Source of the DNA: Bacteroidota bacterium
GTDB taxonomy: Bacteria > Bacteroidota > Bacteroidia > Chitinophagales > LD1
Direction: 5' to 3'
DNA: 64,000 nucleotides
Assembly (NCBI GenBank): GCA_016722375.1
Contig: JADKJG010000004.1
Span: forward strand, 66,867-130,866
In this document: positions 1,710 through 48,529 of the stretch, piece after piece
How positions within the stretch are numbered: the stretch's first letter is position 1
Layout: each line of letters opens with the position of its first letter
Translations under genes and position numbers: made by a program
The notes under the pieces: model-generated
Database searches by the model: none
Told to the model about the DNA's origin: nothing
The model's input: only the letters and a program-made list of their open reading frames with translations

Positions 1710-3208
1710 TGTTCATTATACCCGCCATAGATATCATTGACGGACATTGCGTGCGCCTTTCGCAAGGCGACTATGCGCAGAAGAAAATCTACAACGAGAA
1801 CCCGCTCGAAGTCGCGAAAGAATTTGAAGCAGCAGGTATCGAGCGCCTACATCTGGTTGATTTGGATGGAGCGAAGTCGCATCACATCGTTAATCACGCC
1901 GTTCTTAAAGAAGTATCGGGCAACACCTCTCTGCAAATTGATTTTGGCGGCGGAATAAAAAGTGATGAGGATGTAAAGCTCGCCTTTGAAAACGGAGCAA
2001 AACAAATCACCGTGGGCAGTATTGCCGTAAAATCGCGCGAGACAGTTTTAAAATGGTTGAAGCATTATGGCCCCGAGAAAATAATTCTTGGTGCCGATGT
2101 AAAAGGCGAATCCATCGCCATCAACGGATGGCAGGAAAGCAGCTCGCTCAATCTTTTCGACTTCCTAGAAGATTACATTCAGCAAGGTATCCGGTATGTT
2201 ATCTGCACCGACATTTCTAAAGATGGCATGTTGCAGGGACCCTCCTTCAATCTTTATCAAAAAATTCTTTTGCGTTTTCCTGAAGTAAAACTGATTGCCA
2301 GCGGAGGCGTTAGCGAGATGAATGATTTAATCCGTCTGAACGAAATGGGTTTGTACGGCGCTATTGTCGGCAAGGCAATTTACGAGGGAAATATTTCGCT
2401 TGATCAACTCTCTTCATTTCAAAGCCCTTCCCTTCGGGGAGGGTTGGGAGGGCTTGCCAAACGTATCATCCCTTGCCTTGACATCAAAGATGGGCGCACG
2501 GTCAAGGGGGTCAACTTTGTCAACCTGCGCGATGCGGGCGATCCGGTGGAGCTTGCCAAAATTTATGCGGCCGAAGGAGCCGACGAACTCGTGTTCCTCG
2601 ACATCACCGCCACGCACGAGCGCCGAAAAACTTTGATTGAACTGGTAGAGCGCGTGGCGCAGAACATCAACATTCCTTTCACCGTTGGCGGCGGAATTGC
2701 CTCGGTGGATGATGTCTATGCCTTGTTGCAAAGCGGGGCCGATAAAGTTTCGGTCAACTCCGAGGCGGTGCGCCATCCGCAACTGCTGAATGAAATCTCT
2801 GACCGGTTCGGCAATCAATGTTTGGTGTTGGCGATAGATGCCAAAGAGGTGAATGGAATTTGGAAAGTATTTCTCAACGGCGGGCGACTGGAAACCGAAA
2901 GAGAATTGTTTGAGTGGGCGAAGGAGGGCGAGCAACGCGGTGCCGGTGAAATTCTTTTCACCTCTATGAATCACGACGGAACAAAGAACGGATTTGCGAA
3001 CAATGCCTTGCGGCAACTTTCTCAAACCGTCAACATACCGGTCATTGCATCCGGTGGCGCCGGAACCATGCAGCACTTTTTCGATACCTTCACCGAAGGC
3101 AAAGCCGATGCCGCTTTGGCTGCCAGCATTTTTCACTTTAAAGAAATCAGTATCCCCGATTTGAAAGCATATCTCAAACAAAAAGGATTAGTCATACGAA
3201 GCTATTAG
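1709..3208 (+). CDS. hisA/hisF: HisA-HisF in-frame fusion as assembled (ProFAR isomerase barrel about 1709-2425, linker, cyclase subunit about 2444-3208)
   Basis: ATG 1709 overlaps the hisH stop (TAATG). HisA motifs [10 protein letters not shown] and GGGIKS run through to GKAIYEG. The linker [14 protein letters not shown] follows, then His[20 protein letters not shown] through to ASGGAG. No stop codon lies between the two barrels. Confidence 0.8.
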
Positions 3209-3312: not shown

Positions 3313-3909
3313 ATGAAAATTGATTTCACCAAAGGCGCGGGACTTGTTCCCGCCATCATCCAGGACGCTGCTACCGGTGCGGTGCTCATGCTCGGCTTTA
3401 TGAACGAAGAAGCCTTTCAGAAAACGCAGACCGAAAAGCGCGTCACCTTTTTCAGCCGCAGCAAAAACCGCTTGTGGACCAAGGGTGAAGAGTCCGGCAA
3501 TTTTCTTGATGTGGTTTCCATCCTGATTGATTGCGACCATGATACGCTTCTTATAAAAGCAAAACCCCACGGACCGGTGTGCCACACCGGTACCGATACC
3601 TGTTGGAATGAAAAGAACAGCGCCCCTCCGCTTGCTTTCCTTGCCGAACTGGAAGCCACCATCGCCGCGCGCAAAAATGCAGCGCCGGAAGATTCATACA
3701 CCGCAAAACTTTTCTCCAAAGGCATCAACAAGATTGCACAGAAGGTGGGCGAAGAAGCCACCGAACTCATCATCGAAGCCAAGGATGACAATCCGGATTT
3801 GTTTCTGAACGAAGCCGCCGATTTGTTGTTCCACTACCTCATCCTGCTGCGTGCAAAGGGCTATGGACTGGCCGATGTCATCACCGTGCTCGAAGGCCGT
3901 AAGAAATAA
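3313..3909 (+). CDS. hisIE: bifunctional phosphoribosyl-AMP cyclohydrolase / phosphoribosyl-ATP pyrophosphatase
   Basis: HisI motifs (FFSRSKNRLWTKGEESGN, CDHDTLL, GPVCHTG) are followed by a HisE region (YTAKLF, KVGEEATE). Confidence 0.9.
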   Translation: MKIDFTKGAGLVPAIIQDAATGAVLMLGFMNEEAFQKTQTEKRVTFFSRSKNRLWTKGEESGNFLDVVSILIDCDHDTLLIKAKPHGPVCHTGTDTCWNEKNSAPPLAFLAELEATIAARKNAAPEDSYTAKLFSKGINKIAQKVGEEATELIIEAKDDNPDLFLNEAADLLFHYLILLRAKGYGLADVITVLEGRKK

Positions 3910-4411: not shown

Positions 4412-4655
4412 ATAAGGGCCCTTCGGCACGGCACAAGGGCCCTTCTCTTTCCGATGAGGACCCTTGTCTGACGGATGAGGGTTCTTCTCTGGCAGCGAAG
4501 GGCTCTCCTCTCTGCCATAAGGACCCTTATCCAGAGAATAAGGACCCTTGTTTATTGCGACAAGGACCCTTGACTGGCGCATGAGGTTCCTGTTCTGGAA
4601 AATGAGGGCCCTTGGGTGGCTGACAAGGACCCGAAAATTGAAAATAAGAGTCTAT
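4412..4655. repeat. 12-copy tandem array with 21-bp period, core AAGGRCCCTT
   Basis: Cores start at 4414, 4435, 4456, 4477, 4498, 4519, 4540, 4562, 4583, 4604, 4625 and 4646. The spacers are divergent. Confidence 0.9.
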
Positions 4656-4672: not shown

Positions 4673-4702
4673 CAAAAACCCCGCAAAAAGCGGGGTTTTT
4701 TG
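4673..4702. terminator. bidirectional rho-independent terminator
   Basis: AAAAACCCCGC-aaaaa-GCGGGGTTTTTT. It has an A-run on one side and a T-run on the other. It sits 25 nt past the stop of the minus-strand gene 4727-5389. Confidence 0.8.
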
Positions 4703-4726: not shown

Positions 4727-5389
4727 TTAAGATGTTGCTCCTAAAGCAATAATAATAGAATTGGCGGCGCTCCAGGGACCTGCACCCGCAGAATTTACCG
4801 CCCGCACCTGTACCCAAACCCGCTGACCTGCATGAGCCGGATTGGAAAGGTCAATAGCAGTAGAAGAAACATCATGGTCGAACGGCACCCAGACGATGGG
4901 GTCTGTGCCAAAAGGGTCATTGAAAGTGTAGCGCATGTTGTACCAAATATGGCCGAAGTGATGCACGGCATCCCAATGCGCATCTATGTGTCCGAACAAG
5001 TCATTGTGCGTTAAAGAAAGATTCTGAGCCTGCGGCGGACTCGTAACATCGGGAGCATTGAAGTCCTGAATAAACATGTTAGCGCTTTCAATAATCGCCG
5101 GGTCGCCACCACTCACGTTTTGAACGTATGCCGTTACTTTTACGCCTATATCCATCGCTGCCTTCTTTTTCAGTTTAGAGTCGGCCACCGCCATGCTCAA
5201 CTGATGCTTTAGAGTGGTTACCAGCGTTTCGGCTGCTTCCCAGGCATCGGTGGCCAGAGTCCAGTCTGCCAAGGATGGAAGGGGTACTGAAAAATTAATA
5301 TTGCCGGTCATCGCTGCGATGCAGGCGCGGAAGAGGGCGATGACCACCGTGGCGGTCTTGCCATACATTTTTAAGATTGCTTTGCTCAT
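4727..5389 (-). CDS. hypothetical protein with helical N-domain and FN3-like C-terminal domain (paralogue P1)
   Basis: 220-aa ORF. It aligns with 28242-28850 (MTGN.NF..P.P.LAD, AYVQ, GG..II.S) and has an FN3-like tail (RVWVQVRAVNSAGAGPWS). Confidence 0.75.
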   Translation of the reverse strand: MSKAILKMYGKTATVVIALFRACIAAMTGNINFSVPLPSLADWTLATDAWEAAETLVTTLKHQLSMAVADSKLKKKAAMDIGVKVTAYVQNVSGGDPAIIESANMFIQDFNAPDVTSPPQAQNLSLTHNDLFGHIDAHWDAVHHFGHIWYNMRYTFNDPFGTDPIVWVPFDHDVSSTAIDLSNPAHAGQRVWVQVRAVNSAGAGPWSAANSIIIALGATS

Positions 5390-5482: not shown

Positions 5483-5908
5483 TTAGTCCGGTATTTTGGC
5501 CTTTATTTTTCCGTGCGGAAAATAAATTTCGCGCACTTTTTTGATGTGTGTCTTCGAAACGGCCACCGTCATTCCGTTGGACATTAGGAGGTGTAGTTGT
5601 TTACTGGCTGTTTTCGCCTGATAGCAGTCCACCACATGTTTGCGGTTGATAATCACCCCGCGATTGACGGTCATAAACTCGGGGAGCTTCAACAGGTGGC
5701 AGTCCTTTACGGTCAGCTTCACATAGTATTCTCTGGATTTAGGAGACCCGCTCCCTTCGTCCTGCTCCAAGTGGTGATACCGGATGTAGTTAGACAGCTT
5801 GGTGGCCAGCACCAGTTGGTCGTAAAAAATTCTAACAGATCGTTCGAAACCCTGCACAGGTAGCAAGAAATAATCATCCATAGCGATATTGGGTTTTTGG
5901 TGTACCAA
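5483..5908 (-). CDS. stand-alone LytTR-type DNA-binding domain protein
   Basis: 141 aa. LytTR-like core FMTVNRGVIINRKHVV through to MSNGMTVAVSKTHIKKVRE. No receiver domain. Confidence 0.6.
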   Translation of the reverse strand: MVHQKPNIAMDDYFLLPVQGFERSVRIFYDQLVLATKLSNYIRYHHLEQDEGSGSPKSREYYVKLTVKDCHLLKLPEFMTVNRGVIINRKHVVDCYQAKTASKQLHLLMSNGMTVAVSKTHIKKVREIYFPHGKIKAKIPD

Positions 5909-6094: not shown

Positions 6095-7582
6095 ATGGCA
6101 AAACACCAACTGAAACCCCACACCATCTATTGCGGCGACAACCTCAAGATGCTGCAAGAAGTGCCCGACGAATCTGTTGACCTTGTTTATATAGACCCGC
6201 CCTTCAACAGCAACCGAAACTATGAAGTGTTTTGGGGCGATGCCGCCGAAAAGCGCGCCTTCAACGACCGCTTTGGCGATGCACAAGCCTACATAGACTA
6301 CATGCGCCCCCGCGCCGAACAACTTTATCGCGTGTTGAAAAAGACGGGCAGTTTCTATTTCCATTGCGACTGGCACGCCGACTCTTATGTGCGCCTCATG
6401 TTGGATGAAATATTTGGGGCAAATAATTTTCGCAATCATATTATTTGGCAAAGAACCAATGCACACAATGATGCAAAGAGTCAGTTTGGTGTAGTGAACG
6501 ATTCTATTTTCTATTATGCTAAATCAGATAAAACTTCTTTTAATGTTCAATACACTGCTTACGATGAAGATTACATCAAGAACTTTTACAGGTTCGATGA
6601 TAATGATGGGAAGGGAGTATATCGGATGGGTGACATGTCAGCACCAGCAGGTGGAGGAATGGCTGCAATAAACAAGAAAACCGGAAAGTCAAATGGATGG
6701 TACTACTATAAAGGATATGAACCACCAGAAAGAGGTTGGAGATATTCCGAAGAAACCATGAAGAAATTGGATGAAGAGGGTAAAATTTATTTTCCGATAG
6801 ATAAAAAAGGAGTTCCTGACTTTAAAAAGCGGCTGGCTTTCAAAAGATATTTGAACGAACAAAAAGGGCAATTGATTTCAAATGTCTGGACGGATATACA
6901 AAACCTGCAAGGTGCATCGAAAGAAGCATTGGGCTACCCTACACAAAAACCCATTGCGCTGATGGAAAGAATACTGGAAGCGAGCAGCAACAAAGGCGAT
7001 ATAGTGTTAGATGCTTTTTGCGGATGTGGCACTACTTTGGTGGCAGCGCAAAAGCTGGACAGAAAATGGATAGGCATAGACATTTCGCCCACCGCTTGCC
7101 GCGTGATGGCGCAAAGACTTTGGGATATTTTTAAACTGGATGAAGGCAAAGACTTTGAACTTTCCGACTTGCCACACACCGAAGAAGAACTGCGGCAGAT
7201 TCCGCACTTCGAGTTTGAGAACTGGGCGGTCATTGCCCTCGGCGGCATTCCAAACAAAATCAAAGTGGGTGATTATGGAATAGATGGAAAACTTTATCCG
7301 GTAGATTTAGTAAAGCAGAAGAAAACCGGCTCCGATTTGTTTGGCGACAGCGATATTTATTATCCCATCCAAGTGAAACAAAAAGACAAAGCGGGCCGAC
7401 CCGACATTGATGCCTTTGAAACCGCCATCCGCCGCGACGGCCGCCGCAAAGGCTACTTCATCTCTTTCGACTACACCTCCGATGCCATCAAAGAAATCAA
7501 GCGCCTCGACAAAGACGGCGAAATAGAAATTGTACCGATTACGGTGAAGGATTTGTTGCGGAAGGAGAGTTGGGGAAATTAG
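6095..7582 (+). CDS. beta-class N6-adenine/N4-cytosine DNA methyltransferase fused to a C-terminal Mrr-like (PD-(D/E)XK) restriction-endonuclease domain
   Basis: Motif IV VYIDPPFNS is N-terminal and motif I VLDAFCGCGTT comes later (beta permutation). The C-terminal about 130 aa (FEFENWAVIALGG, GDYGIDG, IQVKQ, GYFISFDYTSDA) match the Mrr catalytic-domain pattern. Confidence 0.8.
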   Translation: MAKHQLKPHTIYCGDNLKMLQEVPDESVDLVYIDPPFNSNRNYEVFWGDAAEKRAFNDRFGDAQAYIDYMRPRAEQLYRVLKKTGSFYFHCDWHADSYVRLMLDEIFGANNFRNHIIWQRTNAHNDAKSQFGVVNDSIFYYAKSDKTSFNVQYTAYDEDYIKNFYRFDDNDGKGVYRMGDMSAPAGGGMAAINKKTGKSNGWYYYKGYEPPERGWRYSEETMKKLDEEGKIYFPIDKKGVPDFKKRLAFKRYLNEQKGQLISNVWTDIQNLQGASKEALGYPTQKPIALMERILEASSNKGDIVLDAFCGCGTTLVAAQKLDRKWIGIDISPTACRVMAQRLWDIFKLDEGKDFELSDLPHTEEELRQIPHFEFENWAVIALGGIPNKIKVGDYGIDGKLYPVDLVKQKKTGSDLFGDSDIYYPIQVKQKDKAGRPDIDAFETAIRRDGRRKGYFISFDYTSDAIKEIKRLDKDGEIEIVPITVKDLLRKESWGN

Positions 7583-8270: not shown

Positions 8271-8529
8271 GTATTCTTGATTTGAAAAGACCTTGTAAGG
8301 ACAATCTATATTGATGAGCGCTGAGCTGCGCGAGAGATTGCAGTGGAAATCCTTTTCTTCTTTTAAGAATATACGAGTAGAAAAGATTGGAACGTAAAGC
8401 CCGACCGACGCCGAGGAACGAGGCGGGGGACGCGCCATTATTTTTTGCATTGTGTTTGTTTGGGTATTGATTAGGAATAGGTTGTTTAGGGATAATGGGG
8501 GAAGGCGATTGGTGGCGCGATAAAATTTA

Positions 8530-26300: not shown

Positions 26301-27418
26301 CATCCATCGCAACCGCATTGGCTATAGCAATACCCCCGGGAATGGAGGAAGTAATTGTCCTGTCCCATAAGAAAGTACTGTCGCTTTGATATGTCAGCGC
26401 TACAGCATTTTTTTCGCCAGTGTATTTGATCGCCGTAGCAGAAACGGCCAAAACTTGTGTAAATGGATTATAGGCCAATCCGGTGGGTAGCGTAGCAACA
26501 CTACCCGGCGCTCTCCATTCTTCCACCCATTTTACGTTTAGCCCTACATCAAATTTCATCAGTTTTACATGCGGATCTAATCCGGCAGAATCAGCCAGAG
26601 CCAACAGGTAAATATCACGAGTGACGCCATCTACGGCTATATCTATGGCTTTCGTAAATTGATTTCTATCATTGCTTCCATAATTGATATGGTCAATTTC
26701 CCCATCATCTTTATAAAATGCTACCATCTGAGGTATCCACTCCGTGGTGCTGACTCCCACTCCGCCAATCAATCCAATACAAGGCCCGCCCCCTATTTGT
26801 TGAGCTATAACTTCATCTTTCAATAACCGGACAGCAACATCCGGAGCCCCTACACTGTCGTGATATGCAATCCATATTTCATTTCCGGCAGTGTCATATT
26901 TCAGTAAGGTGAGCATGTAATCATCTACGTCCGTCTGCTCGGTCACCGCCACATAAACAAATCCCGAATCATCTACGAGCATCGAGGAGGAAATATCGTC
27001 ACCCTCATAATCACCCTCATAATACTGTACCCAAAGCACATTCCCTTCGTTATCTACCCTACCGAAAATGACATCTCTGGAATCAGGTTCACCAAAAGTG
27101 CCCACTAAGTAAATATCATCTCCCTTTACTACCGCATCAGTAGCATAGGCTTCTACATTTTCAAGCATGGTTTCCCAAAGCACCACCCTCAGAGTCATAT
27201 TTGCGAATGGCAATGTTATCTCCCAAAAGCGTGGAATAATCGCTGGTGATGACAATGGTATTATCCTCCTGATCTACATAGTTAAGGATATGATAGTCGG
27301 CTTGGTTAGCTATCGAGCTGGTAAGCGCCCATCGCTGATTTAACAGAGTTTGAGAAAATGAATTGCTAAAAATTAAGGATAGGAGTGTAATAACTCCAAG
27401 ATGTAAAACTGTTTTCAT
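23387..27418 (-). pseudogene. about 1340-aa SBBP (beta-propeller) repeat T9SS cargo gene split into three ORFs by two frameshifts (as assembled)
   Basis: ORFs 27161-27418 (signal peptide), 25834-27255 and 23387-25933 are contiguous in sense. They carry repeated D.GN.YV.G.T.S.DFP-type units and a Por tail (VFPNPSSNTITIRL, GIYLLVINV). Confidence 0.7.
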
Positions 27419-27662
27419 TGTATTTATTTTGAGGTTAATAAATCAACTCATGTACCGCTAAACAATATTCAAAATCTCTACATTCCTATCTATCTAAATG
27501 CGGCGTATTTTATACCAATTGAACAGCAAGCTAAATTTATTTTTGTATTTGGTAAGCTTTGTTTTTTAACAGTCCTTGGCTTTATCCTTTAAATAGCTTA
27601 TCTCGTCATTGAAATCCACAAACCCCATATTGTTTTCCCCCATTTTCAATCACTTAATTTCT

Positions 27663-27876
27663 ATTCGCAGCAAGTCAGCGGCTATTCGTAACAGAATGAA
27701 AGCTAAGCGTGGCAGCTTAAACTTCAATCGTAACAGAATAGACATTAATCGTAGCAAGTTAAAGTCTATTCGGAAAAAAAAAAAAAGTAGCGGTATAGCT
27801 TCTAATCGTAGCAGAATGAAAGCTAATTCGTAACAGATTAGACTTTAATCTAGCAGAATAGAAGCTAATCGGTGCT
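27663..27876. repeat. tandem array of about 11 copies with about 21-bp period, core AATCGTARCA
   Basis: Cores at 27663, 27684, 27705, 27726, 27747, 27768, (27789), 27804, 27826, 27847 and 27867. The phase is broken once, by an A13 tract at 27774-27786. Confidence 0.85.
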
Positions 27877-28129
27877 AGTTCATGTCTGTTTGCAGGTTAG
27901 CTTTGGGTTTATATAATTTGGTTAGCCAAATGTTCCATAACCATAAGGCTAATTAGCGGCATTGACCGCTTTATTATATGTATTAGCCTAAAAATAAAGT
28001 ACTATTAGTATAATACAAAGTATATGTTTTATAATATGCTTATAAAAATGAAACAAGCTGAAATGTACTGCCGTATAATATTGTATATGCTTTTGCTTTA
28101 TGTACATAATATCGTTCTTGTAAATAAAC

Positions 28130-28215
28130 AGAGGGGAATGAAGTCCCGCTTTAAAAAACTTCTACTATGGTTTCACCAAAAGAGAGGAATGAAGTCTCGC
28201 TTGAAAAAACTTCTA
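28130..28215 (+). promoter_or_regulatory. duplicated 35-nt leader element (two copies, 51-bp offset) upstream of paralogue P2
   Basis: AGAGGGGAATGAAGTCCCGCTTTAAAAAACTTCTA (28130-28164) versus AGAGAGGAATGAAGTCTCGCTTGAAAAAACTTCTA (28181-28215). Both form a small stem, and the stem carries one compensatory G:C to A:T change between the copies. Confidence 0.45.
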
Positions 28216-28241
28216 AACTTGTTCAACAAAAACTAAATGTC

Positions 28242-28850
28242 ATGAAACTAAAAATGGGCTTTTTAGGATTGAGTATCGCTGAGGTGATAGATAGATCCAC
28301 GCTTATAGTGACTAAGATGACGGGAAACCCGAACTTTCCCACACCTGATCCGACGCTGGCTGATGTAACGACCGCTGCGGATGCACTTCTGGCTGCGTAC
28401 AACAATTCGCGCGACGGAGGTAAGACACTGACAGCCACCATGCGTTTGCGCCTGAAAGAGCTAATGGAGCTTAACAGGAAGCTGGCAGCGTATGTGCAGG
28501 CAGAGTCTTCGGGGGGTGAGGAAATCATCTTGTCCAGTGGTTTTGACGTGGTAAGGAGAGGTGATCCTACTCAGGTGGCGCAGGTGCATAACCTGCGCCT
28601 CCAACACGGCATTCCTGTCGGTAGCATTCGTGCTATCTGGGACAGAGTCGTGGGAGCGGGTGCCTATGTAGTGGAGCTTTCGGATACGGATGCCAATGGT
28701 CCGTTCAGTTTCCACCTTTGCACACTCAAAACCCGGTTAGATTTCACTGGTTTGGTGCCTGGTAAATTGTACTGGATACGTATCTACGCAGTAGGTCGTC
28801 ACAGTACCGGATTGCCGAGCGACATCAGTGTACACACCGCGAGCATCTAA
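28242..28850 (+). CDS. hypothetical protein with helical N-domain and FN3-like C-terminal domain (paralogue P2)
   Basis: The start is taken at MKLKMGFLGLS. Motifs TKMTGNPNFPTPDPTLADV and AAYVQAESSGGEEIILSSGF. FN3-like tail LYWIRIYAVG. Confidence 0.75.
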   Translation: MKLKMGFLGLSIAEVIDRSTLIVTKMTGNPNFPTPDPTLADVTTAADALLAAYNNSRDGGKTLTATMRLRLKELMELNRKLAAYVQAESSGGEEIILSSGFDVVRRGDPTQVAQVHNLRLQHGIPVGSIRAIWDRVVGAGAYVVELSDTDANGPFSFHLCTLKTRLDFTGLVPGKLYWIRIYAVGRHSTGLPSDISVHTASI

Positions 28851-45919: not shown

Positions 45920-46207
45920 ATGTCGCGCAAGCATTTAATTATTGAAGTTTTAGAAATGAGAAAGATGGAACAATTAGAAGACTTAGACTGCCGTAAAGCG
46001 GTAAGAAAGTTGGTGAACTGTTCCTGTGGTTTGCTTGTGCTGCGACCATTGTCAAAAGACTATACTATCAAAGATCAACTAAAACGGACAGCACTTTCCA
46101 CCATGAATAATATCGCTGAAAGGCCTAGGAGATATAGTGATAGTAGTGCTATTCGCCATCTCGAAATATCTTTTACATCAAGACAAGAAGACCGGAGCAT
46201 TTTATAA
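45920..46207 (+). pseudogene. degenerate/truncated four-helix-bundle (23S rRNA IVS-type) protein gene
   Basis: LEDLDCRKA through to KDYTIKDQLKRTALSTMNNIAE fits the family pattern. At 95 aa it ends early, directly before hppD. Confidence 0.45.
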
Positions 46208-46232
46208 CCAATTACTTAAACACAGCTATATC

Positions 46233-47363
46233 ATGGAAACAGCAACAAAAAAAAGCAAACAAACCCCTATAGTTGAAGATTTCCTTCCGCTTAACGGTAC
46301 CGACCACATTGAATTCTATTGCGGCAATGCCAAACAATCTGCCTATTATTATCAAGCAGCTTGGGGCTATGAACTGGTAGCTTATGCGGGGCCAGAAACC
46401 GGGTTGCGTGATCGTGCCAGCTATGTACTGCAACAAGATAAAATCCGGATCGTACTCACCTCCGGTATGCACCCCGAAAGCGAAATCAATAAACATTATC
46501 TAAAACACGGTGACGGTATCAAGGTACTAGCCTTGTGGGTGGATGATGCGCGTAAGAGTTATGAAGAGACAACGAAGCGCGGCGGTATAGGGATCATGGA
46601 ACCAACTGTACTGAAGGATGAATTCGGTGAGGTGGTGATTTCGGCTATTAAAACCTATGGAGAAACCATCCACAAGTTTGTGGAACGTAAAAATTATAAG
46701 GGAGCATTTCTACCTGGCTATCAGCCAAAGAAATCTAACTTTCCTGTTAAAGGAGTAGGTTTGAAATATGTGGACCACTGTGTTGGCAACGTGGAACTGG
46801 GCAAGATGAATGAATGGGTAAAGTTCTATGAACAGGTGATGGGTTTTAAACTTCTTATCACCTTTGATGACAAAGATATTTCTACCGAATACACTGCCCT
46901 GATGAGCAAAGTAGTGAGCAACGGCAACGGGTACGTCAAATTCCCCATCAATGAACCGGCAAATGGAAAAAAGAAATCACAGATTGAGGAATACATCGAG
47001 TTTTATCACGGTGCTGGTGTACAACACATTGCCGTTGCCACAGATGATATAATAGCAACAGTTACTGAACTGAGAGCGCGGGGAGTAGAGTTTCTTTATG
47101 TTCCCGAAACCTATTATGACGAGGTGTGGAGTAGAGTCGGCGAAATCAATGAAGACCATCAGGCGATTAAAAAACTCAATATACTCATTGATCGTGACGA
47201 AGAAGGTTACCTCCTTCAACTATTCACTAAACCTGTTCAGGACCGACCTACGGTATTCTTCGAAATCATTCAGCGCTGCGGTGCCAAGAGTTTTGGCAAA
47301 GGAAATTTCAAAGCGCTGTTTGAAGCGATTGAGAGAGAGCAGGATCTACGGGGTAATTTATAG
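46233..47363 (+). CDS. hppD: 4-hydroxyphenylpyruvate dioxygenase
   Basis: The start is taken at METATKK. Motifs HIEFY, VQHIAVATDDI and FFEIIQR. Confidence 0.85.
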   Translation: METATKKSKQTPIVEDFLPLNGTDHIEFYCGNAKQSAYYYQAAWGYELVAYAGPETGLRDRASYVLQQDKIRIVLTSGMHPESEINKHYLKHGDGIKVLALWVDDARKSYEETTKRGGIGIMEPTVLKDEFGEVVISAIKTYGETIHKFVERKNYKGAFLPGYQPKKSNFPVKGVGLKYVDHCVGNVELGKMNEWVKFYEQVMGFKLLITFDDKDISTEYTALMSKVVSNGNGYVKFPINEPANGKKKSQIEEYIEFYHGAGVQHIAVATDDIIATVTELRARGVEFLYVPETYYDEVWSRVGEINEDHQAIKKLNILIDRDEEGYLLQLFTKPVQDRPTVFFEIIQRCGAKSFGKGNFKALFEAIEREQDLRGNL

Positions 47364-47397
47364 ATTTTGAAGGGTTTATGTACGAAGGCATGGATAG

Positions 47398-47616
47398 TTA
47401 CATCCCGTCCCAATCTCTTTCGACGTTGTGCATGTCGGCAATCTTCTGCCAGTCGCCATTGGCGGCGGCCGTGATGGCGGTGCGCAGTTGATTATTCTTT
47501 GGGGTCATATCCGCGAGGGTCACGTTGGGGGTGACAAAGGTGCCGGGGTTGGCCGCAATCTTCGCAATGTTACTATCTCCCAGCGCCACTTTCTCTGTGG
47601 CAGATTTTTTAAAAAT
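47398..47616 (-). pseudogene. truncated third paralogue (P3) of the FN3-tailed family
   Basis: The open frame reads KKSATEKVALGDSNIAKIAANPGTFVTPNVTLADM, matching the N-domains of P1 and P2. It has no ATG, only about 70 aa, and the FN3 part is missing. Confidence 0.6.
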
Positions 47617-47721
47617 TTAAGTGCTACCCTTACTCTTCTCATGTTGTTTAGGTTTTAATGGTTAAAAAATAATGGTGCATTGATTTTCGGAAATAAAAGG
47701 ACCGGAAGGGGCATTTGCATA

Positions 47722-47971: not shown

Positions 47972-48157
47972 TTGAGGCCGGAATTGCTGAAAAAGGCTGA
48001 TTTTGGTTCATTTTCGGGTTTTTTCGGGCTTTTGAGCGCTTTCAACCCAAATGACGCAATAGAAAAAAGGGGTATTTTTTCAGCTTAAAATCCTAATGCG
48101 TAGAGCGTTAGAGAAAGTAGCCTATGGAATTCGATGTATCCTTAACTAACAAAGAGA

Positions 48158-48529
48158 TTGCGCCTGTTTGCCGAAGATGAAACCTGTCGAAACTATCGCT
48201 ATTCTACCTATGTTACCAATCTCGAGTTTGCTCCCGCAGAAGTGTGGCGGATGTACCGTGGCAGAGGGGATGCGGAAAACAGAATTAAGGAACTGAAACA
48301 AGACTTTGGTTTTGACAGCTTTAACTTAAATGGATTTTACCCAACCGAAGCCGCACTGACTTTTGCCATGATTGCTTATAATCTAATGTCGCTTTTTAGA
48401 ACCTTTGCCATTGGAGCATATTTTGAAAAGCAAAATGGTAAACTCGACCTAAATAAAAAACGAAGAAAATGGTTTTCCTGTTTATGGAATTATCCACTTA
48501 AAATTCCTTTTCATTTTTCTAATCCGTAA
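48158..48529 (+). mobile_element. C-terminal fragment of a DDE (IS4/IS1380-like) transposase; IS remnant
   Basis: YRGRGDAENRIKELKQDFGFDSF matches the Y-2-R-3-E-6-K signature. Only about 120 aa remain and no inverted repeats were identified. Confidence 0.65.

Follow-up and report, generated by a model that had tools for sequence, protein, structure and literature searches.

What ties a small gene family to tandem repeats that differ in sequence from one gene to the next? The question is raised by a stretch of 64,000 nucleotides from the genome of a Bacteroidota bacterium (contig JADKJG010000004.1; the whole stretch is called the window here), in which the gene at 28242-28850, named P2, has two relatives, P1 and P3, and in which each of the three lies beside an array of short repeats spaced by two turns of the DNA helix. 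We found that the arrangement extends well beyond the window: family members in several phyla are accompanied by an array of their own, with a period of 21 bp that stays fixed while the sequence is replaced. We tentatively read the array as a row of helically phased binding sites on double-stranded DNA acting in cis on the adjacent gene, a reading that we prefer and hold with reserve. The three genes and their arrays are the following.

28242-28850, forward strand: P2, intact family gene of 202 aa, with the N-domain at residues 1-104 and a fibronectin type III (FN3) domain at residues 105-202 (open reading frame (ORF) listing, homologues, model)
4727-5389, reverse strand: P1, intact paralogue of 220 aa (ORF listing, alignment, tblastn)
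47374-47616, reverse strand: P3, truncated pseudogene with N-domain residues ~14-93 (alignment, tblastn)
4412-4643, no strand assigned: array 1, 11 units of 21 bp (one of 22 bp) with the core A[TC]RAGGRCCCTT, 3' of P1 and past its terminator
27663-27876, no strand assigned: array 2, ~10 units of 21 bp with the core AATCGTARCAG, 366 bp 5' of P2
47713-47971, no strand assigned: array 3, 12 units of 21 bp or 6 units of 42 bp (83-87% identity), ~100 bp 5' of P3

P1 and P2 share 33% identity over a full-length alignment, and the alignment of P3 to both is restricted to the N-domain. A tblastn search with 36 family members as queries returned exactly three copies of the family in the window, P3 among them (match at 47374-47610, family residues ~14-93, E = 6e-8). 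Judged by these alignments, the three genes are true paralogues, as the initial annotation of the window had proposed. It had also recorded P3 as a truncated copy, which is right as far as it goes; the gene is better called a pseudogene, since its N-domain fragment stops against the end of its neighbour, a 4-hydroxyphenylpyruvate dioxygenase-like gene by the reading of its translation (46137-47363), which P3 abuts. The longest ORF of P2 begins at 28167; the family alignment favours a start at 28242.

The arrays lie 72 bp (array 1 and P1), 366 bp (array 2 and P2) and ~100 bp (array 3 and P3) from their genes, arrays 2 and 3 on the 5' side and array 1 on the 3' side, and the coordinates, distances and orientations first given for them proved correct. 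Array 2 is irregular: it has indels, a run of 13 A (A13) and some units of 20 or 22 bp. Array 3, the most homogeneous of the three although P3 is a pseudogene, contains a unit type A with the 16-bp palindrome TTTTCCTATAGGAAAA, for which a genome-wide scan returned only chance single matches. The arrays are also as unrelated as they had been said to be: the mutual similarity of the three consensus units is not above that of shuffled units, and within the window each core is confined to its own array. With Tandem Repeats Finder and a lag-autocorrelation detector, these three were the only comparable arrays found in the 64 kb. Array 2 is bracketed by AT-rich inverted repeats at 27423-27443 and 27978-27998, and array 3 by another pair at 47648-47671 and 48073-48096; they are 21-24 nt long and 79-86% complementary. 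Transposon-like ends were considered and set aside, as none were found at the other loci examined, and the two pairs may be chance.

Further loci of the family (numbered here with an L) were gathered from representative genomes, metagenomes and assemblies, and arrays were searched within 1.1 kb upstream of the gene in those 80 non-redundant loci for which the upstream sequence reached 450 bp or more. A tandem array is present in 56 of the 80, and the lag is 21, 42 or 63 bp in all of them bar one (44 bp). The arrays comprise 8-26 units, and the gap to the start codon is mostly 200-420 bp. Elsewhere such arrays are scarce. In the remaining 361 kb of these loci there are, besides one weak match, just the 3' arrays at L033 and L113 and an array in L037; the control loci (154 kb) hold two small arrays, both in L048, and the window none besides its own three, which leaves ~3-4 arrays away from family genes in ~575 kb. 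Because arrays are so scarce in the 361 kb of flanks and in 218 kb of control sequence, they are more than 100-fold enriched beside the family. The initial annotation had suggested that the family travels with a locus-specific phased array and had named a survey of the paralogues as the test that could refute this. The survey bears the suggestion out, with two qualifications: about 30% of the family loci have no detectable array, and 21-bp arrays are not strictly exclusive to the family, because the one in L037 precedes unrelated genes. The association across several phyla is robust. No conserved partner protein gene was found near the module, the family gene alone being always linked to the array, and intact arrays also accompany truncated genes (P3, L093, L104 and L114).

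The L037 array (1954-2248; complete genome CP064999.1) has 14 units of 21 bp with the core TTGCAGGGGTGCAA and lies 240 bp upstream of two unrelated genes (274 and 107 aa), with the family gene 3.7 kb further on, past 90-bp repeats. In the control locus L048, which has no family gene, a 4.5-unit 21-bp repeat lies between convergent genes (7226-7320), a low background level. L105, L106, L109 and L110 (GC ~70%) form a divergent family branch with 2-4 tandem gene copies and no 21-bp array.

We found no description of the family or of 21-bp arrays in the literature. P2 has 63 homologues of ~205 aa, whose best label is 'FN3 domain-containing protein'. The family profile matches FN3 over residues ~105-202 (Protein Data Bank (PDB): FN3con, E = 5e-12, and multi-domain titin down to E = 1e-47), and Foldseek assigns the FN3 fold to the C-terminal half with a probability of 1.0. 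The C-terminal FN3-like domain that P1 and P2 had been said to share is thus recovered by profile and fold, P2 alone staying below the Pfam cutoff (PF00041; 20.1 bits, cutoff 25). An AlphaFold (AF2) model of P2, built on 36 sequences with a predicted local distance difference test (pLDDT) score of 95, predicts a short strand followed by three long helices (residues 12-26, 39-56 and 61-89) and the FN3 sandwich. The modelled N-terminus would be a conserved strand and helix, which would fit a protein without a signal peptide, and the family protein is probably cytoplasmic. A homology search had also been proposed as a way to name the N-domain; it identified the FN3 half, and the N-domain has no match in Pfam, PHROG, NCBIfam, PADLOC or PDB sequences, the best fold match in the PDB having E = 0.9. 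A profile search with the N-domain returned 193 proteins, and because all 120 matches listed are shorter than 200 aa, the domain was seen among these only together with FN3 or as fragments.

The most conserved features of the family are the loops MTGNPNFPxPxP and AAYVQ..S.GD...ILSSGF. There is no invariant basic residue in the family alignment, and the protein contains no helix-turn-helix (HTH), ribbon-helix-helix (RHH) or winged-helix fold, no RNase-like fold or motif and no Rep-like domain. The isoelectric point (pI) ranges from 4.8 to 10.2 over the family; the N-domains of array-bearing members have a median pI of 6.4 and a net charge of 0, compared with +2 in array-less members (p = 0.009). 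According to source annotations, the family occurs in Bacteroidota, Verrucomicrobiota, Planctomycetota, Acidobacteriota, Abditibacteriota, Hyphomicrobiales and Methylococcaceae, the last two being proteobacterial metagenome-assembled genomes. One family locus, L027, is from a cultured isolate, Ginsengibacter hankyongi BR5-29. A phage or plasmid origin of the module was considered and rejected, as the family was not found in IMG/VR, INPHARED phages or PLSDB (tblastn over 72,556 plasmids).

What kind of element are the arrays? They are not coding: 21 bp would equal a heptad, but all frames are disrupted by stop codons and by the units that measure 20 or 22 bp, and no ORF spans any array of the window. 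They match no known RNA family in Rfam. Hairpin arrays of RNA or single-stranded DNA were rejected too, since the covariation apparent by eye was not found by a permutation test. Covariation of dyad arms within units reaches p <= 0.05 in 4 of 34 arrays, G.U pairs are not in excess among non-Watson-Crick cells on either strand (148 vs 168, other 413), and the strands are not consistently skewed with respect to the gene. Universal dyad symmetry was likewise discarded, with only 5 of 29 consensus units beating shuffles (p < 0.05; 1.5 expected); dyads are a trait of some arrays and not of all, and some cores are long perfect dyads. Intrinsic curvature, predicted with two wedge models (a phased A-tract control gave 41-47 degrees, as expected), is unsupported: 35 arrays are no more curved than their column-permuted versions or flanks, with medians in degrees per 21 bp of 14.5, 13.7 and 12.9 for array, permuted version and flank, and of 11.3, 12.0 and 10.9, respectively (p = 0.34 and 0.22).

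What degenerate arrays do retain is a core of 6-12 bp, fixed at one position of the unit, while the remainder is randomised (W_A1, L104, L089, L025 and L028). Conservation per position is strongly uneven (p = 9e-6 in W_A1, 4e-10 in L104, 3e-5 in L089 and 1e-4 in L025), a pattern in which the amplification of 42-bp units is a partial confounder. The retained core, the strict two-turn period and the dyads of some arrays together argue for phased sites on double-stranded DNA that face one side of the helix.

The 21-bp period is fixed while the array sequence turns over. Array sequences are entirely different between loci, with GC contents from 23% to 70%, and higher-order periods of 42, 63, 84 and 126 bp are often more identical than the 21-bp period, which points to unequal crossing-over. 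Some orthologues have kept a related core (CTTYGATTGCY in L015 and L017, 76% amino acid identity; AMCATGTRATG in L033 and L113, 75%). The orthologue of P1, protein P0329 at locus L237, is 73% identical, and L237 contains the gene, an almost identical terminator and then a ~15-unit 21-bp array with the unrelated core TTAGNGCWYTRA. The two loci are homologous at the nucleotide level only from ~34 bp ahead of the ATG to where the terminator ends; this segment starts near the second of the following features.

4674-4701, reverse strand: terminator hairpin CCCCGC-loop-GCGGGG with a T-run, between P1 and array 1, near-identical in L237
5411-5418, reverse strand: -7-type promoter box TACTTTTG, ~25 nt upstream of the P1 start codon

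Since L237 keeps the order of gene, terminator and array, the 3' array is a conserved partner in the P1 clade and no leftover; array 1 had been placed correctly on the 3' side of P1, and the position is a trait of the clade rather than an oddity. The same layout occurs in L033 and L113. In L033, an insertion sequence (IS) of ~1.2 kb with the inverted ends GGCAGGGCAAACGCAT and ATGCGTTTGCCCTG splits the 21-bp array in two (3707-3895 and 5092-5200).

Promoter motifs stand between array and gene in two subclades. In the first (L015, L017, L019, L028 and L067), a conserved -24/-12 motif, TTGGCAYG-N4-nnGC, precedes the ATG by ~155 nt, with 120-280 bp separating it from the end of the array farther upstream; no such motif was found ahead of P1, P2 or the other Bacteroidota members. 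In the second (L040 and L042), a shared Bacteroidota -7 box is found ~265-290 nt before the ATG and, in L040, 330 bp below the array. Because these conserved motifs sit between array and gene, the array would lie outside the mRNA in both subclades. Terminator-like hairpins between array and gene were seen on the gene strand in 1 of 57 loci and on the opposite strand in 2. In the five loci of the first subclade (L015 at 2824-3003), the sigma-54-type motif is followed by a conserved 5' leader of ~140 nt that folds as a long hairpin, with compensatory changes in 8 of 35 predicted pairs and no Rfam match. Going by its sequence, this leader may be a new cis-regulatory RNA.

Three further features surround P2.

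27898-27905, forward strand: candidate -7 promoter box TAGCTTTG, which fits the Bacteroidota TAnnTTTG, 22 bp past array 2
28127-28228, forward strand: 51-bp direct repeat in two tandem copies of 78% identity, in the leader directly before the P2 start codon
28932-28957, forward strand: predicted intrinsic terminator after P2

The terminator indicates that P2 is monocistronic. The promoter call for TAGCTTTG is weak, because the number of TAnnTTTG matches over the window is at chance level. The pair of 51-bp repeats occupies the final 100 nt preceding the start codon, and some other loci likewise have a further short repeat, of another kind, in the stretch from array to gene (L002, with GGCTGTAACGC twice; L022, with ~10-bp GCAATC-type repeats).

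By the reading of their translations, the flanking genes of the window are housekeeping genes (his, FabG-like, hydroxyphenylpyruvate dioxygenase-like). In relatives, the FabG-like gene downstream of P2 and the gene of a 703-aa protein follow in the same order, but P2 is missing and the upstream gene is not the same. Because the relatives keep this downstream pair without P2, the module at P2 is accessory; the look at synteny that had been proposed was informative to this extent, the insertion boundaries of the module not being definable from the empty-site comparison. Directly upstream of P1 and on the same strand, 5483-5908 encodes a 141-aa protein that consists of a LytTR DNA-binding domain alone. 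Beyond it, 6095-7582 (forward strand) encodes an N6_N4_Mtase DNA methyltransferase fused to an Mrr-type nuclease domain. A DDE transposase fragment (DDE_Tnp_1_4) lies at 48158-48529, ~190 bp beyond array 3; the site of P3 and array 3 is a rearranged spot at which the array has outlived its gene. Upstream of a GH5 cellulase-like gene, at 8320-8410 on the forward strand, lies a Flavo-1 RNA (55 bits, E = 3e-9), the sole Rfam match above threshold in the window. Over the family, the immediate upstream neighbour is a DNA-binding regulator in 7 of 39 loci (GerE in three, LytTR in two, XRE-type HTH in two), the LytTR-only neighbour of P1 being one of the seven. LytTR sites are classically 9-bp repeats with a 21-bp period.

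How might such a module work? In the reading that we tentatively favour, it would consist of a monocistronic gene for a protein of ~205 aa, made of an orphan three-helix bundle and FN3, and of an array of 8-26 tandem units that keep strictly to a period of 21 bp, or two turns of B-DNA. Each unit would combine a conserved core of ~6-12 bp with a free spacer, so that the sites would come to lie on one helix face. We infer that a DNA-binding protein would load cooperatively on these sites and form a phased nucleoprotein complex, which would act in cis on the neighbouring gene as a multi-site operator, enhancer or silencer; given such a mode, action from 120-330 bp upstream of a promoter or from past a terminator would be possible. 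Unequal crossing-over would homogenise and replace the repeat, and selection would preserve the period and a core. The protein that binds the array is probably not the family gene product, because the N-domains of array-bearing members are neutral and those of array-less members more basic.

Several observations weigh against this reading. There is no recurrent regulator family beside the arrays, the regulators in 7 of 39 upstream neighbours being a mild enrichment only. Three unrelated cores within one 64-kb window, where they occur nowhere else, would need three specificities, and arrays of 8-26 sites far exceed ordinary bacterial operators and upstream activating sequences. The core is wholly replaced between P1 and its 73% identical orthologue beside a conserved terminator, which is awkward for a fixed host regulator, and L017 and L019 (74% identity) have no common core. 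A 3' position past a terminator, as in P1, L237, L033 and L113, is unusual for a promoter element. To this are added the loci without a detectable array, among them the tandem gene clusters L105-L110, which are without any, and the share of 42-bp unit amplification in the uneven conservation per position.

A broader alternative, possible though doubtful, is that the modules represent a new class of cognate array-protein pair. The FN3-tailed protein and its private 21-nt or 21-bp array would recognise each other as RNA or as DNA, and the paralogues would be independent self-recognising units, serving as toxin and antidote, in defence or in the marking of loci, that have spread horizontally across at least seven lineages.

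That the partner is the RNA of the array, in the style of a type III toxin-antitoxin system, we consider improbable. The 21-nt units would bind the cognate protein and neutralise or regulate it, the unit length being set by the binding geometry of the protein and the locus-specific sequence by coevolution of the cognate pair. Such a partner would account for a private array at each gene, a unit length that is constant over the family and a sequence that is specific to the locus. The modules are moreover chromosomal, multi-copy and patchy, full arrays persist beside the truncated genes named above, and the methyltransferase-Mrr fusion lies near P1. Type III loci with a swapped 3' order, which is rare, and with truncated toxins beside full arrays have been reported, and further type III families have been anticipated (PMC3401426). 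However, the repeats of the known families measure 31-62 nt in 1.9-5.6 copies (PMC3401426), compared with 21 nt in 8-26 copies here, and many of our arrays are degenerate, with a unit identity of only 45-60%. Terminator-like hairpins are present in only 1 and 2 of the 57 spacers (gene and opposite strand, respectively), the promoter motifs would preclude co-transcription in two subclades, and strand skew, covariation and a G.U signal are all missing. The protein, finally, has no RNase-like fold or motif and no match in PADLOC, and the N-domains of array-bearing members are neutral or acidic (median pI 6.4).

We also think it unlikely that the array is the target of the family protein itself, in the manner of a centromere or of iterons, for autoregulation, for pairing or handcuffing, or for anchoring of the locus. 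Coevolving specificity would then make paralogous modules mutually independent. The family gene is indeed the one protein gene with a constant link to the array, and the arrays are directly 5' or 3' of the gene, helically phased and paralogue-specific, as in sopC (PMC3177203). Array 3, with 6 units of 42 bp and a 16-bp palindrome, and the turnover of cores that follows protein divergence in some orthologue pairs point the same way. Against it stand a family without invariant basic residues and without an HTH, RHH or winged-helix fold, its pI of 4.8-10.2, and N-domains that are less basic where an array is present (charge 0 vs +2, p = 0.009). There is also no NTPase or replication partner; the context is chromosomal and of housekeeping type, with no copy in PLSDB, INPHARED or IMG/VR, and array 3 is the most homogeneous in the window though P3 is a pseudogene.

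Least probable is an array that serves as sequence-independent structural DNA (curved or flexible, insulating or topological) or is a neutral by-product of slippage: the period is kept while the sequence is not, 42-, 63- and 84-bp units show unequal crossing-over, the sequence is wholly replaced between orthologues, an IS is tolerated within the L033 array and an array persists beside the dead P3, but predicted curvature is not raised, neutral drift would erase a core that holds a fixed unit position in degenerate arrays, and slippage would not yield a 21-bp period in several phyla or a more than 100-fold enrichment by one family.

If the arrays are phased binding sites, as we prefer, the family would supply many natural pairs of a site with its binding protein, each independent of the others; if it is the family protein with which each array pairs, a new gene-repeat system would stand beside type III toxin-antitoxins, centromeres and iterons. 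A two-turn period that is fixed over several phyla while the sequence is replaced is an unusual evolutionary constraint, and it implies an undescribed molecular ruler in the form of a binding protein or an assembly. Several hundred database proteins, at best labelled 'fibronectin type III domain-containing', gain a defining genomic signature and an experimental handle. The arrays, which can be mistaken for loci of variable-number repeats or for loci resembling clustered regularly interspaced short palindromic repeats (CRISPR), are now recognisable by the accompanying gene family.

The initial annotation could assign the module to no known system, and our comparison agrees: type III toxin-antitoxin systems, partition centromeres, iterons and CRISPR each have at least one defining feature that the module lacks, and the promoter expected of a sigma-54 enhancer is seen in one subclade only. 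The type III systems (ToxIN, CptIN and TenpIN) resemble the module in that a gene has its own array, usually upstream, with a repeat length typical of the family and a sequence specific to the locus; they are mostly chromosomal, with an occasional swapped order and with truncated genes beside intact arrays (PMC3401426). The array is upstream of the protein gene in 56 of our 80 loci and at P2 and P3, and 3' at P1. Unlike type III repeats of 31-62 nt in 2-6 copies, however, the family has 21-nt units in 8-26 copies. Type III loci have a palindromic terminator between repeats and gene, and a type III layout was rejected, as no enrichment of terminators was found there (1 and 2 of 57 spacers). In type III loci a single promoter ahead of the repeats serves both repeats and gene; in two subclades of the family, sigma-54-type and -7-type promoter motifs stand between array and gene, and the arrays carry no signal of RNA structure. 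The family protein is a helical bundle with FN3, whereas the type III toxin is an endoribonuclease of the ToxN, CptN or TenpN type.

Partition centromeres come close in another respect. F sopC consists of 12 units of 43 bp with a 16-bp inverted repeat in each (PMC3177203) and resembles array 3 with its 6 units of 42 bp and 16-bp palindrome. Like F sopC, R1 parC and the single-protein system pSK1 par, the arrays are tandem phased repeats that directly adjoin the gene of a protein, which in partition systems is their user, and their sequence is specific to the system. The family nevertheless has neither a partner of the ParA, ParM or TubZ type nor a DNA-binding fold that can be recognised; it is chromosomal, with three copies in 64 kb and no match in 72,556 plasmids, and its array-bearing proteins are not basic.

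Iterons of theta replicons (P1, F, R6K and RK2) are direct repeats of 17-22 bp that lie on either side of one gene and are specific to the replicon; their spacing, like that of parC arrays, is ~21-22 bp. The family arrays share this geometry, and the geometry alone. The family has no winged-helix Rep, and there is no evidence of an origin, though its elements (DnaA boxes and an AT-rich unwinding element) were not searched for; its modules of ~1.2 kb lie among housekeeping genes, and its arrays of 8-26 units are longer. CRISPR repeats measure 23-55 bp, alternate with unique spacers of about their own length and mostly have cas genes close by; the family arrays have a 21-bp period, and whole units are duplicated in them, including the spacer part (L023, L021 and L009). 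Within 27300-28300 the one CRISPR-DR match lies outside array 2 and scores 17.5 bits against a threshold of 35, and no cas genes were seen among the scanned genes of the window or the 39 upstream neighbours.

The arrays of sigma-54 activators, OmpR/PhoB boxes and LytTR repeats of 9+12 bp are phased sites, usually 2-4 in number, that lie 100-300 bp upstream of a promoter, and sites of the enhancer type can be active on either side of a gene. The family shares the phased upstream sites, the 21-bp geometry of LytTR and, in two loci, an adjacent LytTR protein. It differs in having 8-26 sites in place of 2-4, and these accompany a single gene family while their core changes; the -24/-12 motif (GG-N10-GC) is confined to five loci of one subclade, and there is no linked activator gene. 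The module is likely to be a new kind of system, with no known explanation among those compared here.

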